From a virus (taxonomy: Duplodnaviria > Heunggongvirae > Uroviricota > Caudoviricetes): a stretch of DNA of 50,514 nucleotides. The notes below the pieces were generated by a model. It was not told the origin of the DNA. It worked only from the letters and a program-made list of their open reading frames with translations, and did not search any database. The DNA lies in IMG/VR virus record IMGVR_UViG_2534681773_000022. One strand, written 5' to 3'. The position numbers and the translations under genes are program-made. Of the stretch, positions 4,363 through 12,239 are shown one piece after another. Each line of letters opens with the position of its first letter. Within the stretch, counting starts at the first letter, position 1.

Positions 4363-4924
4363 TATCGCGTCCTCAACAATGAATTTTGTGATGCGGTGCC
4401 TGGTGCCTCCAGGTGACGTTAACCAGTTAACAATTAACGCCGGATACAGAGAATCCACCCATAACACTGTTTTTGGTTTTAACTGTTCCGCGTGCGCTCA
4501 GCCGCATTCACCACATCACAAAATTCACTTTAAAAAGGGCGGCAGAGCAGTCACGGAGTAAAACTGATACCGCCAAACGTCACCAGAAAATTGATAACAG
4601 AGGGCGTTGCAGCGGGGTTGTCACTTAAGCGTATGGTCAACCTGACAACCCGGTGTCCTCAACGGGGGAAGGAATAACCCCGCCATACTTACCGCCGCGC
4701 CATTTCGCGGATTGCCACAACCGGAAACGCACGGTCGACGAAAATTTAACGACAGGCTATCTATGAACCAGCTACCTCGCCGGGCGCTTTCGCGTTATGG
4801 TCTGACTTTTCAGGGAAATATCCTTTCAGTAAACTGTCAGTGCCGGATGCTCACCCGTGTCCGGCGCACGCACTCCACCTCACCCGTGGAGAACTCCTTA
4901 ATCACCAACCCTCAGGAGGGTGAA

Positions 4925-5200
4925 ATGTCGACTGAAAATGATGAAATCATTAACTCCCTGATACGCCAGATTAATAATTTTGATAAAGCATTGCAACATG
5001 CTGCGGCGCGTAGTGATATAACTCTTTTAGCAATTTCATTTCTTGCATCTGTTATGGATAAAAATGAAGTCGTACGACAGAGTCTTGTTGATTATATCGA
5101 CTCGCTTCAACCCGGCACTTTCAATCATGAGAGCTTCAATCATGAGAAAGAGCATGTTAAGTCTGTAATTAATTCTCTTATTTTGAATCAAAAGAATTAA
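4925..5200 (+). CDS. Hypothetical protein (AT-rich moron-like ORF)
   Basis: ATG preceded by AGGAGGG at 5-nt spacing; 91 aa; opposite strand to the surrounding early-left genes. Confidence 0.4.
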   Translation: MSTENDEIINSLIRQINNFDKALQHAAARSDITLLAISFLASVMDKNEVVRQSLVDYIDSLQPGTFNHESFNHEKEHVKSVINSLILNQKN

Positions 5201-5509: not shown

Positions 5510-5743
5510 TCAGTCAGTGTTTCTGGTTAACCAGCGACGCGCGCCAGCTTCAGTTTTAAACGTTTTGCTTCTGGTATATGTCATCGCGGTAAACGTGCCG
5601 TCCTGGTTGGGAAACACGCCGCATACCAGAGATTCGTTGTTGCCAAGATTGAGCATATCCATGTTGACCTCATTTCCCCTTAACGCCGGGGTAGCGGAAC
5701 AAAAACCTGCTGCATAGTTATTAAAGTTGAACCCTGCCGTCAT
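5510..5743 (-). CDS. Hypothetical early-left protein (first gene downstream of pL)
   Basis: 77-aa ORF on the leftward strand directly downstream of the predicted pL; no recognisable N-antiterminator features. Confidence 0.4.
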   Translation of the reverse strand: MTAGFNFNNYAAGFCSATPALRGNEVNMDMLNLGNNESLVCGVFPNQDGTFTAMTYTRSKTFKTEAGARRWLTRNTD

Positions 5744-5843
5744 GTTCTTACGCCTCGGGCTGGCTACTTAACCCCTGACCACTGCCTGGTAACTCGAGGT
5801 ATTGCCCTGTATTGTGTGGGACGGGATGGGTTGGTATGGGAAA

Positions 5844-5872
5844 ACTATAGGAAATGCCTAATTACTTGTCAA
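5844..5872 (-). promoter_or_regulatory. pL-like early leftward promoter (-35 TTGACA, 17-bp spacer, -10 TATAGT)
   Basis: On the minus strand: TTGACA at 5867-5872, TATAGT at 5844-5849, exactly 17 bp apart, overlapping GCCTAAT operator half-sites. Confidence 0.6.
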
Positions 5873-5887
5873 TAGGCTATGCCTAAT
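5871..5887. promoter_or_regulatory. OL operator (AATAGGC-TAT-GCCTAAT inverted repeat), with extra half-sites at 5856-5862 and 5898-5909
   Basis: 17-bp near-palindrome sharing the GCCTAAT half-site with the OR operators; overlaps the -35 of pL. Confidence 0.55.
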
Positions 5888-5980
5888 AATTTGGGCGCAA
5901 CCTAATAGGTGATGGTTTGTGGGAGAGGTAGTAGGAGTTAACTAACGGGAACTAGGAATTTCCCGTCGGACCATATAAGT

Positions 5981-6457
5981 TTAAGTTCCTGTCTTGGTGA
6001 TGTTCTGGCTTTTCCGTTTTGATTCTTGATTTTTCAGATAGTTAGCTACCTTCATTTCCATTGCGGCAATGTAGGCGCGAACGTCATGATCAACCCAACT
6101 AGGCTCCGTAGCATTTCCAGATAAGATGAAAGCCACAATTGCTCTTTTTTCATCAGAGGCGGCTTGATAAAGGCTGTTTATGTCTAAAAGTTCACTTTTT
6201 GTATCTGAAGTGGATGGGGTTGGTATGGGGTATTCGTTAAGCCCCCAATGCTCTGGACCAACCACATCAGAAAAGAAACGCCATAGTTCTGGAAGTTTGT
6301 CTTTACTTATCGAACCTTTCTTAATCCAGTCATGGATTGATGGTGGTTGGACTTTGAAATGACGTGCGATTTCCGCCTTTGATTTGACGGCTCCTGATGC
6401 AATTTTTTTGTTAATGGCCTGCTCTATCGCTCGGCCTAAGTCTTTACCACTAAGCAT
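5981..6457 (-). CDS. CI-like prophage repressor (HTH DNA-binding protein)
   Basis: 158-aa ORF divergent from the cro-like gene and flanked by palindromic operators on both sides; HTH-like segment AEIARHFKVQPPSIHDWIKKG. Confidence 0.75.
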   Translation of the reverse strand: MLSGKDLGRAIEQAINKKIASGAVKSKAEIARHFKVQPPSIHDWIKKGSISKDKLPELWRFFSDVVGPEHWGLNEYPIPTPSTSDTKSELLDINSLYQAASDEKRAIVAFILSGNATEPSWVDHDVRAYIAAMEMKVANYLKNQESKRKSQNITKTGT

Positions 6458-6509
6458 TGCTTAATAGTCTCCTATGCGCATCGCGTTAGGCAATCCCTAC
6501 TCTCGATGT

Positions 6510-6552
6510 ATTAGGCATAGCCTATTGACAATTTCATTAGGCTAAGCCTAAT
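6510..6552. promoter_or_regulatory. OR operators: ATTAGGC-ATA-GCCTATT (6510-6526) and perfect palindrome ATTAGGC-TAA-GCCTAAT (6536-6552)
   Basis: Two 17-bp inverted repeats in the repressor/cro intergenic region, bracketing and overlapping the pR -35 and -10. Confidence 0.65.
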
Positions 6553-6554
6553 AT
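6525..6554 (+). promoter_or_regulatory. pR-like early rightward promoter (-35 TTGACA, -10 CTAATA/TAATAT)
   Basis: TTGACA at 6525-6530 with a -10-like hexamer 17-18 bp downstream, about 30 bp upstream of the cro-like start. Confidence 0.55.
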
Positions 6555-6581
6555 TGTTGCGTGTTTTTTGGAGTTCATTCG

Positions 6582-6905
6582 ATGAAAAAAGATAACTATT
6601 CATTCAAACGAGCTTGTGCTGTTGTCGGTGGGCAATCAGCAATGGCTAGGCTTTTAGGTGTATCTCCTCCAAGCGTAAATCAATGGATCAAAGGTGTACG
6701 TCAGTTACCTGCTGAGAGATGTCCTGCGATTGAACGAGCAACAAAAGGTGGTGTCCTGTGTGAAGAACTTCGTCCTGATGTTGATTGGACATACTTACGA
6801 CGCTCGTCATGTTATTCGCAGAATATGTCGATGAAGCAACCAAATGACGAAAACGATCATACCCGAAGCATCAAGAGGCAAATGATTCATGAAAATCAAA
6901 CATGA
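6582..6905 (+). CDS. ydaS: Cro/CI-type HTH regulator, YdaS-like
   Basis: Translation (MKKDNYSFKRACAVVGGQSAMARLLGVSPPSVNQWIKG...) matches the remembered Rac-prophage YdaS; GGAG RBS; first rightward gene. Confidence 0.75.
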   Translation: MKKDNYSFKRACAVVGGQSAMARLLGVSPPSVNQWIKGVRQLPAERCPAIERATKGGVLCEELRPDVDWTYLRRSSCYSQNMSMKQPNDENDHTRSIKRQMIHENQT

Positions 6906-7314
6906 GCACATCCGCATGGCGATGAATGCCTGGGCATACCCTGATGGTGAGAAAGTTCCTGCAGCTGAAATAGCCCGGACTTATTTCGAACTGGGGATGA
7001 CGTTCCCTGAACTGTACGACGACAGCCATCCGGAAGCCCTGGCCCGTAATACCCAGAAAATTTTCCGTTGGCTGGATAAAGACACCCCTGATGCTGTTGA
7101 AAAAATGCAGGCTCTGTTACCGGCGATCGAAAAGGCGATGCCGCCTTTGCTGGTGGCCCGTATGCGCAGCCACAGTTCTGAATATTACCGTGAGATCGTC
7201 GAACGGAGGGATCGGCTGGTGAAGGATGTCGATGATTTTGTTGCGTCAGCGGTTGTTTTGTATGACCAGATGAATCGCGGCGGCCCGGCAGGGAATGCTG
7301 TGGTGATGCACTAA
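6889..7314 (+). CDS. ydaT: YdaT-like protein (CII-like regulator / putative toxin partner of YdaS)
   Basis: 141-aa ORF beginning MKIKHEHI, overlapping the end of ydaS; matches the remembered Rac YdaT N-terminus and length. Confidence 0.7.
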   Translation: MKIKHEHIRMAMNAWAYPDGEKVPAAEIARTYFELGMTFPELYDDSHPEALARNTQKIFRWLDKDTPDAVEKMQALLPAIEKAMPPLLVARMRSHSSEYYREIVERRDRLVKDVDDFVASAVVLYDQMNRGGPAGNAVVMH

Positions 7315-7336
7315 AAGCACGGTGTTCGGGGGTTTT

Positions 7337-8299
7337 ATGAGCAGCAAGCTTCATGGTCTTGTCTGGGAAGGGTGCGCCTTCACCGGCATGATCTTATCCA
7401 GGGTGGCGGTTATGGCCCGTCTTGCAGACTACAGCAATGACGAGGGCGTGTCATGGCCTGCCATTGAAACTATCCGGCGTCAGATCGGTGCAAGAAGTGA
7501 ATCCACAGTGAAATCGGCTATTGCAGAACTGGCGAAAGAGGGCTGGCTGACGAAGGAAGAGCGTAAGGTCGGTGGGCGTAATGTAAGCAATATCTATCGG
7601 CTTAATGTGGAAAAACTCGAAGCAGCTGCGGCGGCGGCGCGTGAGTCATATAAACCGAAAAGAAAAATTAGCCCGGCAAAAAATGACCCGTTAACAGTTG
7701 ACCCGTCAAATATTGACCCCTCAACGGTTGACCCGTCAAATTTTGATGGATCAACTGTTGATAAAAAACTGCCGATTAGGGGGCCGATGATTGACCCCGA
7801 TCCGTCAGTATTAAAACCTGATCCGTCAGATAAAAGATCTTCTTGTCCGGACGCTTCGCAACCGGACCCGCAGACGGCTGAACAGGATTTTTTAACCCGA
7901 CACCCTGACGCGGTTGTGTTCAGTGCGAAAAAACGCCAGTGGGGAAGTCAGGAAGATTTGGTGTGCGCACAGTGGATCTGGGGACGAATCGTGAGTCTTT
8001 ACGAGCAGGCGGCCAGCGATGATGGCGAGATCACTAGACCGAAAGAACCCAACTGGACAGCATGGGCCAATGACGTTCGCACAATGCGGATGCTGGATGG
8101 CAGAACTCACAGACAAATTTGTGAAATGTTTGGGCGTCTCCAGCGGGATTCGTTCTGGGTAAAAAACATCATGAGTCCGGCAAAACTCCGGGAAAAATGG
8201 GATGAACTGGTTATCCGCCTGGGGCGTTCGCCAGCGCAGCGTTGCGTGAATCACATTTCTGAACCGGACACTGAAATTCCGCCGGGCTTCAGGGGGTAA
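7337..8299 (+). CDS. Replication initiator, O-like (N-terminal winged-helix domain; iterons inside the gene)
   Basis: 320 aa; GGGGG RBS; the linker (DPLTVDPSNIDPSTVDPSNFD) is encoded by an array of 12-bp palindromes, as the lambda origin lies within O. Confidence 0.65.
   Translation: MSSKLHGLVWEGCAFTGMILSRVAVMARLADYSNDEGVSWPAIETIRRQIGARSESTVKSAIAELAKEGWLTKEERKVGGRNVSNIYRLNVEKLEAAAAAARESYKPKRKISPAKNDPLTVDPSNIDPSTVDPSNFDGSTVDKKLPIRGPMIDPDPSVLKPDPSDKRSSCPDASQPDPQTAEQDFLTRHPDAVVFSAKKRQWGSQEDLVCAQWIWGRIVSLYEQAASDDGEITRPKEPNWTAWANDVRTMRMLDGRTHRQICEMFGRLQRDSFWVKNIMSPAKLREKWDELVIRLGRSPAQRCVNHISEPDTEIPPGFRG
7683..7754. repeat. Iteron array / candidate replication origin: five 12-bp palindromic sites (TTGACCCGTCAA type) at exact 15-bp phasing
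   Basis: Sites at 7683, 7698, 7713, 7728 and 7743; the last is a TTGATGGATCAA variant; inside the initiator gene. Confidence 0.65.
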
Positions 8300-8339
8300 G
8301 TGTTAATTTCTGGTCATGAGGTAATTTTCAGGAGGGCTT

Positions 8340-8762
8340 GTGGCAAAAGTTTTTACACAAGAAGAGCGGGAAAAAATTAAAGGGCAGGTTGTTGAACTCG
8401 TACGCCAGAGTGGGCGCGAGACGTTACGACAACTGGAAACTAAAACTGGGGCAACAAGATATCTGATGAGCGTTCTGGCCAGAGAGCTGGTTGCCAGTGG
8501 CGATGTATACAACTCTGGTTACGGGTTATTCCCGTCTGAACAGGCGCGTAAGGACTGGCAAAATGCCCGTAAAAAGCTCTCAAGGGCAAAGCTGAAGAAA
8601 CCATCTGCGGTTGATCCGGACCTTATCTGGTCATTACCTGACGGAGAAATACGTCGCTACGACAGGCGCCTAAACATAATCTGTCGCGAGTGCCGGAAGA
8701 GTGAAGCTATGCAGCGTGTACTGGCGTTTTATCAGGGGAATTTTGAGGAGGTGGTGCGGTGA
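8340..8762 (+). CDS. Hypothetical protein (GTG start, strong RBS)
   Basis: 140-aa ORF with AGGAGG 5 nt upstream of GTG; occupies the position of a helicase loader but is too small and has no ATPase motifs. Confidence 0.5.
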   Translation: MAKVFTQEEREKIKGQVVELVRQSGRETLRQLETKTGATRYLMSVLARELVASGDVYNSGYGLFPSEQARKDWQNARKKLSRAKLKKPSAVDPDLIWSLPDGEIRRYDRRLNIICRECRKSEAMQRVLAFYQGNFEEVVR

Positions 8763-11907: not shown

Positions 11908-11989
11908 TGCAGCGGGTGCTTGAGGCTATCTGTCTCAGGCATGAACACCAAAAGGCAGATAGAGAAAAGCCCCAGTTAACATTACGCGT

Positions 11990-12060
11990 CCGGCAAGACG
12001 CTTAACATTAATCTGAGGCCATATCTATGCTCTACACACGTAGGTTAGCCTCTTACGTGC
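11990..12060 (-). ncRNA. sok: Predicted Sok-like antisense RNA region (position inferred only)
   Basis: Type I hok/sok loci encode a short antisense RNA over the mok start and leader; no promoter was located with confidence. Confidence 0.25.
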
Positions 12061-12239
12061 CGAAAGGCAAGGAGAAGCAGGCTATGAAGCAGCAAAAGGC
12101 GATGCTAATCGCCCTGATCGTCATCTGTTTAACCGTCATTGTGACGGCACTGGTAACGAGGAAAGACCTCTGCGAGGTACGAATCCGAACCGGCCAGACG
12201 GAGGTCGCTGTCTTCACAGCTTACGAACCTGAGGAGTAA
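12027..12239 (+). CDS. mok: Mok: in-frame N-terminally extended reading frame that enables hok translation
   Basis: 70-aa ORF ending at the hok stop, mirroring the mokC/hokC arrangement. Confidence 0.55.
   Translation: MLYTRRLASYVPKGKEKQAMKQQKAMLIALIVICLTVIVTALVTRKDLCEVRIRTGQTEVAVFTAYEPEE
12084..12239 (+). CDS. hok: Hok/Gef-family type I toxin (51-aa membrane peptide)
   Basis: MKQQKAMLIALIVICLTVIVTALVTRKDLCEVRIRTGQTEVAVFTAYEPEE has the Hok-family hallmarks (N-terminal TM helix, conserved Cys, C-terminal AxFxAYE); AAGGAGAAG RBS. Confidence 0.85.
   Translation: MKQQKAMLIALIVICLTVIVTALVTRKDLCEVRIRTGQTEVAVFTAYEPEE

Follow-up and report, generated by a model that had tools for sequence, protein, structure and literature searches.

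A ydaS-ydaT pair of probable Cro- and CII-like function at a mosaic joint in a RacR-type lambdoid prophage of Escherichia coli

Described relatives and the layout of the locus

YdaS and YdaT are encoded by neighboring genes in the Rac prophage of E. coli K-12 and in CP-933P (Sp12), a cryptic prophage of E. coli O157:H7, and publications from 2018 to 2025 treat them as analogues of Cro and CII, not as a toxin-antitoxin pair. Here, we compare these two systems with a ydaS-ydaT pair in the IMG/VR virus record IMGVR_UViG_2534681773_000022, a stretch of 50.5 kb that we call the window. In K-12 Rac, a bicistronic ydaS-ydaT mRNA is made from PydaST, a promoter that is very strong in vitro and in reporter assays, and leftward transcription is activated 29-fold in a manner dependent on an 18-bp YdaT-box, with racR expression going up (PMC11879457). 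K-12 YdaS represses its own promoter, and the RacR repressor recognizes the operator consensus WTAGGC-n3-GCCTAW, with DNase footprints on three inverted repeats (PMC9638921); four operators are stated elsewhere (PMC11879457). In CP-933P, YdaS acts on the OR operators and represses pR, while YdaT is not toxic and activates a promoter, PRE933P, placed "between ydaS and ydaT" (Jurenas et al., PMC8630535). CP-933P YdaT consists of a POU-like helix-turn-helix (HTH) domain and a long C-terminal tetramerization helix, and the DNA-binding tetramer footprints on the operator OM, TTGATT-N6-AATCAA (PMC9986795).

The pair in the window very probably makes up the rightward half of a lysis-lysogeny (immunity) switch in a full-length lambdoid E. 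coli prophage with a RacR-type repressor. In this reading, ydaS is the Cro analogue, ydaT is the CII analogue, and a racR-operator-ydaS module has recombined at the YdaT-box with a CP-933P-type ydaT-O cassette. The layout of a lambdoid immunity region spans 5800-8300 (Table 1), and its gene identities, promoter and operator sequences, YdaT-box, and mosaic joint are directly established.

The original prediction placed two rightward genes resembling YdaS and YdaT at 6582-7314. Both are present at exactly these coordinates, contain the peptide motifs that had been quoted for them (SPPSVNQWIKG and MKIKHEHI), and match the families PF15943 and PF06254 above threshold. YdaS matches YdaS_toxin (PF15943) over residues 9-71 (103.9 bits, cut-off 30; E=3.8e-30), as well as HTH_3, P22_Cro (PF14549; 35.3 bits, cut-off 30.2), PHROG 35 "transcriptional repressor" (E=6e-34), and solved Cro structures (PDB 3bd1 "Cro protein", E=2.8e-10; 5w8y, E=3.8e-08). 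YdaT has a single Pfam match, YdaT_toxin (PF06254; 40.9 bits, cut-off 21; E=2.8e-10). It also matches PHROG 163 "CII-like transcriptional activator" (E=2e-47) and aligns end to end, without gaps, with the solved YdaT structures PDB 8bt1 (E=3.3e-89) and 3c4r (E=2.4e-79), and the Arg-Trp of the recognition helix is conserved as R60 and W61. NCBIfam has no above-threshold model for either protein, the sole match being a sub-threshold "carph-isopro" domain.

The two proteins differ in their closest relatives, and the earlier description of the pair as Rac-type holds for only one of them. YdaS is 85% identical to K-12 YdaS, with 40% identity over 58 residues only to the CP-933P-type YdaS. YdaT, by comparison, is 31% identical to K-12 Rac YdaT and 96% identical (135/141) to the YdaT of an O157:H7 locus with a paaR2-type gene and, after it, a RelB/ParE pair, the same set of genes as has been described for CP-933P. 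With 31% set against 96%, the allele is clearly that of CP-933P, and we rejected "Rac-type YdaT" even as a description at a distant level.

It had also been predicted that the pair lies immediately downstream of a clear pR with palindromic OR operators at 6510-6552, and the sequence bears this out. The promoter has the same hexamers and spacing as the K-12 Rac promoter, and ydaS comes first on its transcript, separated by several operators from the repressor gene, which is transcribed in the opposite direction. On the other side lies a gene matching the RacR equivalog model, whose product is 91% identical to K-12 RacR; no LexA-type peptidase domain was detected in it, since a Pfam scan returned no match. 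Within the predicted operator stretch there are two perfect RacR-consensus dyads, the second of which overlaps the -10 hexamer of pR. A further, degenerate dyad overlaps the racR start codon, a position also reported for operator 3 of K-12. The intergenic DNA between racR and ydaS is 94% identical to that of K-12, and the pL-like region is 81% identical to the K-12 Rac DNA downstream of racR. A consensus scan of 5700-7400 returned only two promoter-like sites, pR and the pL-like promoter, both of them strong and near-consensus, and no terminator, leaving ydaT without an evident oop-like element behind it.

The operators form a lambda-like OR/OL pair. Perfect matches to WTAGGC-n3-GCCTAW number three in the window, all within OR or OL, against a chance expectation that we estimate at about 0.02. 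The hexamer TTAGGC alone is not enriched across the window (13 observed versus 19 expected), so the signal lies only in the complete dyad and in the way its copies cluster. In addition, the 23-nucleotide (nt) OR stretch at 6509-6531 is a perfect inverted copy of 5866-5888 in OL. A perfect 13-nt direct repeat, GGGTTGGTATGGG, occurs at 5828-5840, just past the -10 of the pL-like promoter, and at 6217-6229 within racR, and may be due to chance.

The order of elements is that of lambda, with pL/OL, a repressor gene, OR with divergent promoters, and genes in the cro, cII, and O positions, and with multiple dyad operators. As in lambda, a tetrameric activator would be encoded second on the pR transcript, and a leftward promoter would run antisense through the gene in the cro position into the repressor gene. 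The YdaT site is an inverted repeat, unlike the direct TTGC repeats bound by lambda CII. No sequence similarity between YdaT and CII is reported as detectable except for the recognition-helix Arg-Trp (PMC9986795, PMC11879457).

K-12 Rac shares the gene order, the operator consensus, and the 18-bp YdaT-box with the window, and the Rac-like architecture extends from OL through the eighth codon of ydaT. K-12 Rac is a 23-kb remnant with the DUF1376 protein YdaU and YdaV as replication genes, whereas the prophage here is of full length, with lambda-like late genes and an O-like HTH protein. The junction of the two genes differs as well. Where ydaS ends with TGA in K-12, the window has CGA (in the region 6865-6905), extending the ORF (open reading frame) by 13 codons through the YdaT-box, with the result that a 22-nt gap between ydaS and ydaT in K-12 is replaced by a 17-nt overlap. 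Several other modules have cro-type genes that likewise end within or just past the box, with a similar overlap. The paaR2-ydaS-ydaT region of CP-933P, the source of YdaT structure 8bt1, shares YdaT and the O-like protein with the window, and its YdaT operator likewise lies at the ydaS/ydaT junction, with CII-like leftward activation (PMC8630535). Its repressor gene, paaR2, is followed by a paaA2-parE2 toxin-antitoxin pair, while here the repressor is RacR and there is no such pair.

The same combination is common. Of 5426 complete E. coli genomes, 529 hold at least 80% of 5900-7400, keeping the combination at 95% identity or more. RefSeq copies that are 100% identical over this 1.5-kb stretch are annotated as RacR, an HTH protein, and a YdaT-family protein, and one such genome annotates both ydaS and ydaT coding sequences at the coordinates found here.

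Table 1. Features of the immunity region, by position in the window (aa, amino acids).
Feature	Position	Strand	Details
OL operator cluster	5847-5905		three RacR-type dyads: 5847-5861 (degenerate), 5872-5886 (perfect), 5891-5905 (degenerate)
pL-like promoter	5872-5844	-	TTGACA, 17-nt spacer, TATAGT; 11/12 consensus matches; just past racR 3' end
racR, CI-analogue repressor	5981-6457	-	158 aa; NCBIfam NF049929 "TransRepsrRacR" equivalog, E=1.2e-73, 246 bits (cut-off 200)
OR operator cluster	6450-6551		dyads 6450-6464 and 6486-6500 (degenerate), 6511-6525 and 6537-6551 (perfect)
pR (PydaST)	6525-6554	+	TTGACA (6525-6530), 18-nt spacer, TAATAT (6549-6554); points into ydaS
ydaS, Cro-analogue HTH regulator	6582-6905	+	107 aa; MKKDNYSF...SPPSVNQWIKG...; ribosome-binding site GGAG 6570-6573
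PracR4 counterpart	6704-6672	-	-35 CTGACG 6704-6699, -10 TACGCT 6677-6672; by alignment to K-12
Candidate -10 of box-adjacent pRE-like promoter	6861-6856	-	TATGAT; 20 nt from box edge; same in K-12; predicted start ~6849
Mosaic joint	6880-6912		K-12 Rac homology ends 6912; CP-933P-type ydaT cassette homology starts ~6880-6884
YdaT-box	6882-6899		ATGATT-CATGAA-AATCAA; ydaT start codon in spacer; overlaps ydaS/ydaT junction
ydaT, CII-analogue POU-like HTH tetrameric regulator	6889-7314	+	141 aa; MKIKHEHI...
O-like replication initiator	7337-8299	+	PHROG 391, E=4e-115; same imported cassette as ydaT

The YdaT-box, module exchange, and candidate leftward promoters

The YdaT-box is where the two ancestries meet. 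By blastn, the match to K-12 Rac covers 5675-6912 and ends eight codons into ydaT. When 6860-7330 was used as the query, 3487 of the 5426 genomes gave matches, and the ydaT allele family was found in 2972 (at least 80% of the query covered). The matches of other prophages nearly all begin at query positions 21-25 (6880-6884), while those of the K-12 type end at position 53 (6912). The O-like protein encoded after ydaT is 99% identical to that of the CP-933P-type O157:H7 locus. On these alignments, the locus is a natural mosaic of a Rac-type racR-operators-ydaS segment and a CP-933P-type ydaT-O cassette that meet at the YdaT-box.

The box itself is identical at 18 of 18 positions to the site footprinted in K-12 Rac (PMC11879457) and differs by one base from the CP-933P operator OM, the first base being A here and T in CP-933P. 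We fetched 15 further ydaT loci, comprising 12 from E. coli chromosomes (K-12 Rac included) and three phage records. The cognate inverted repeat (T/A)TGATT-N6-AATCAA is conserved in all 16 loci with the window counted, and MKIKHEHI, encoded inside or just after the box, is a stretch common to all YdaT alleles. Among these loci, the same ydaT family stands behind at least five unrelated repressor/cro pairs, and the DNA identity begins at the box each time. The five repressors are RacR, PaaR2 with paaA2-parE2, a LexA-family CI, a 139-aa HTH protein, and a DicA-type repressor. Such a pattern is, as judged from the alignments, that of classical lambdoid module exchange, and in many prophages the swap at the box is the norm. 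Wons et al. found in vitro binding of Rac YdaT to the CP-933P box and, in vivo, equal activation of the Rac box by the two alleles (PMC11879457). Because the Rac and CP-933P proteins cross-bind and cross-activate each other's boxes, chimeras of this kind can stay functional.

How YdaT would act on the repressor gene depends on the position of its promoter. Wons et al. assigned the YdaT-dependent promoter of K-12 Rac to PracR4, which lies inside ydaS about 190 bp from the box and has the hexamers TTGACG and TACGCT (PMC11879457). By our count, these hexamers are 21 nt apart both in K-12 and in the window, which is unusually far. We found a -10-like hexamer much closer to the box, 20-21 nt to its left, in five of nine unrelated upstream modules, where -10-like means A at position 2, T at position 6, and at least 4/6 matches (background rate 0.020 per position). 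The hexamers are TATGAT in the Rac-type module (the window and K-12), TACAAT in the CP-933P-type module, TATCCT, TATGAT again in a different module, and TAGCAT in a Klebsiella phage; the fetched loci that bear them are labeled L001, L004, L005, L013, and L015. With the 2-nt window taken as fixed, P is about 1.2e-5, rising to about 1.4e-3 once all 119 windows are corrected for; the sample of nine modules is modest, and the hexamers lie in coding sequence, which could bias the composition.

This spacing puts the YdaT-box at about -33 to -50, with its center near -41.5, which would be the placement expected of an activator that stands in for an absent -35. The arrangement suggests a box-adjacent, lambda pRE-like promoter, used instead of or besides PracR4, and the described placement of PRE933P between ydaS and ydaT in CP-933P fits with it (PMC8630535). 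Such a promoter has not been discussed for K-12 Rac. It is compatible with the K-12 constructs, because these, as described, contained the candidate -10 stretch and had only the box mutated (PMC11879457). The conserved -10 position could help to correct the placement of the YdaT-dependent promoter in the K-12 Rac model.

Taken together, we tentatively make two linked proposals, holding somewhat more doubt than confidence about the pair. The box and the first eight codons of ydaT may serve as a conserved "linker" at which whole immunity modules (RacR, PaaR2, LexA-type CI, DicA-type, and others) are exchanged against a common ydaT-O cassette, and the true YdaT-activated promoter may be a class-II-like, pRE-type promoter adjacent to the box.

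Under the Cro/CII-like reading, the switch would work in the following way. In a lysogen, RacR bound to the dyads of OR and OL would silence both pR and pL. Infection or induction, for example, would leave the switch without RacR, and the strong pR would then produce a single ydaS-ydaT-O transcript. YdaS would bind the same operator region through its Cro-type HTH and damp pR, as its 85% identity to K-12 YdaS and the 94% identity of the operator DNA lead us to expect. The YdaT tetramer, with its POU-like fold, would bind the inverted repeat over its own start codon and turn on a leftward promoter inside ydaS, with candidates at 6856-6861 and 6672-6704. Transcription from this promoter would run antisense through ydaS into racR, yielding more repressor and favoring lysogeny, similar to lambda CII at pRE. 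Growth defects upon forced expression would then be a side effect of regulator overproduction. For the chimera, these binding, activation, and repression steps are carried over from both parental modules, to which its proteins are 85-96% identical and its sites identical or nearly so. A live switch in this prophage is plausible because its lambda/phage-21-like late region is complete and because a sequenced induced phage, ON470595.1, carries RacR-type immunity (87% identity).

Competing explanations of the pair

Several points weigh against the assignment of ydaS and ydaT as Cro- and CII-like switch genes. The window contains no second YdaT-box at up to one mismatch, and at two mismatches one further box-like site appears (5183-5200), which is at chance level (2.95 expected by shuffling). 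With a single activator site in the window, lambda pI and paQ have no evident counterparts. The Cro analogy is incomplete because reporter assays in K-12 showed no repression of racR by YdaS, in which it differs from lambda Cro (PMC9638921). CP-933P YdaT did not bind the intergenic region between its own repressor and cro genes, whereas Rac YdaT does bind its own (PMC11879457). In the PracR4 counterpart, the -35 differs from that of K-12 by a T-to-C substitution (TTGACG to CTGACG). Finally, some groups still name ydaS and ydaT toxin genes, as in a 2026 bioRxiv abstract.

An unlikely alternative, though the one that survives best, is that the pair has been co-opted by the host, with YdaT mainly regulating host operons such as rcsA and the Rcs regulon and its role in the phage switch being vestigial. 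K-12 Rac YdaT binds the rcsA promoter and alters motility, capsule, and division, and its expression is gated by host OxyR (PMC11879457); the very wide distribution of the ydaT allele family would also suit a host function. The rcsA site, however, is described as variable and as recognized by the Rac allele (PMC11879457), to which the YdaT here is only 31% identical, and the rcsA promoter lies outside the window. The prophage around the genes is also complete in its early, replication, and lambda-like late regions, which makes a function for the phage the simplest reading. YdaT may still have a side role in host regulation, and effects on the host would supplement the switch role rather than supplant it.

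It is very improbable that the chimera is a non-functional recombination scar, in which a CP-933P-type YdaT fails to cooperate with a Rac-type module and the switch lacks a CII function. The weakened -35 of the PracR4 counterpart and the lack of binding by CP-933P YdaT to its own repressor-cro region could be read in this way, as could the closest genome with an identical immunity region (NZ_CP101257.1), from which most head and tail genes of the prophage have been deleted. Against this, the box is identical to that of Rac and is activated equally by both YdaT alleles in vivo (PMC11879457), all ORFs are intact, and the combination is preserved in hundreds of genomes, with swapping at the box being usual across many prophages.

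The least probable explanation, by a small margin of judgment and already largely refuted, is that YdaS and YdaT are a type II toxin-antitoxin (or "toxin-repressor") module that kills the host or arrests its growth upon RacR loss. It draws on the Pfam names YdaS_toxin and YdaT_toxin, on the RefSeq product name "toxin YdaT family protein," on the small two-gene operon with overlapping ORFs, and on K-12, where, according to the abstracts of two reports, silencing of racR kills the cells and growth suffers when YdaS or YdaT is expressed ectopically (PMC5700377, PMC5700373). The toxin label, according to Jobling's letter, came from a prediction algorithm, and a 2010 study found no toxin-antitoxin evidence (PMC5917428). 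Neither toxic activity nor a toxin fold marks this YdaT as a type II toxin, as its only Pfam match is YdaT_toxin, a prediction-derived name. The solved protein to which it is 96% identical is instead a tetramer that binds DNA and has a POU-like HTH fold (PMC9986795), and no evidence has been reported of an antitoxin neutralizing a toxin by direct binding or of their complex autoregulating the operon (PMC5917428, PMC8630535). In CP-933P, YdaT was without toxicity, and regulator functions were shown for PaaR2, YdaS, and YdaT (Jurenas et al., PMC8630535), while activation of host rcsA transcription accounts for the toxicity of the Rac protein (PMC11879457). Since the YdaT here is the CP-933P allele, we expect it to be non-toxic. 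The places that the two genes take up in a complete lambdoid genome are, moreover, those of cro and cII.

The Cro/CII-like assignment is thus real but ordinary and essentially already known. Its novelty is low because the identical locus is annotated in many RefSeq genomes and both parental modules have been studied in detail by genetic, biochemical, and structural means. The suggestion that this locus offers a clean context for separating toxin-antitoxin from Cro/CII roles is outdated, as experiments on each parental module have dealt with the matter (PMC5917428, PMC8630535, PMC9986795, PMC11879457). Only the precise mosaic joint and the suggested box-adjacent promoter are added here. Beyond annotation the finding matters little: despite their Pfam and RefSeq names, the genes are best annotated as switch regulators of the Cro-like and CII-like kind, not as "toxins." The locus is also a tidy natural case of module swapping at a regulatory site.

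Replication genes, small RNAs, and late region

The window looks like a full-length prophage. Its late region, at 22000-46000, is lambda/phage-21-like and has a full set of head and tail genes, including terminase, portal, tape measure, and J.

Inside the O-like gene, at 7678-7737, there are repeats with a 15-bp period (TTGACCCGTC-like), which are probably origin iterons, as in lambda O. In the stretch after this gene (8300-8762) there is no P/DnaC-like helicase-loader gene; in a near-identical genome, the annotation of the ORF directly next, at 8340-8762, is DUF977 family protein. The CP-933P-type locus that encodes the 99% identical O-like protein has an ATP-binding protein in the position of this ORF, and the O104:H4 locus also lacks such a gene.

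Several RNA families were found elsewhere in the window. The DicF antisense small RNA lies in the pL operon at 4537-4588 on the minus strand (Rfam RF00039, 76.7 bits), and dicB is annotated in the near-identical genome. The sok antitoxin RNA at 11914-12089 (RF01794, 117 bits) marks a hok/sok type I toxin-antitoxin locus, with hokD annotated in a related genome. At 17959-18120 and 18386-19043, genes for tRNA-Met and tRNA-Arg are followed by two copies of the small RNA STnc100 (RF02076), in a region that follows the antiterminator genes of the related genome. Near the tail-fiber end, 49225-49422 matches the IS009 RNA family (RF02111, 217 bits).

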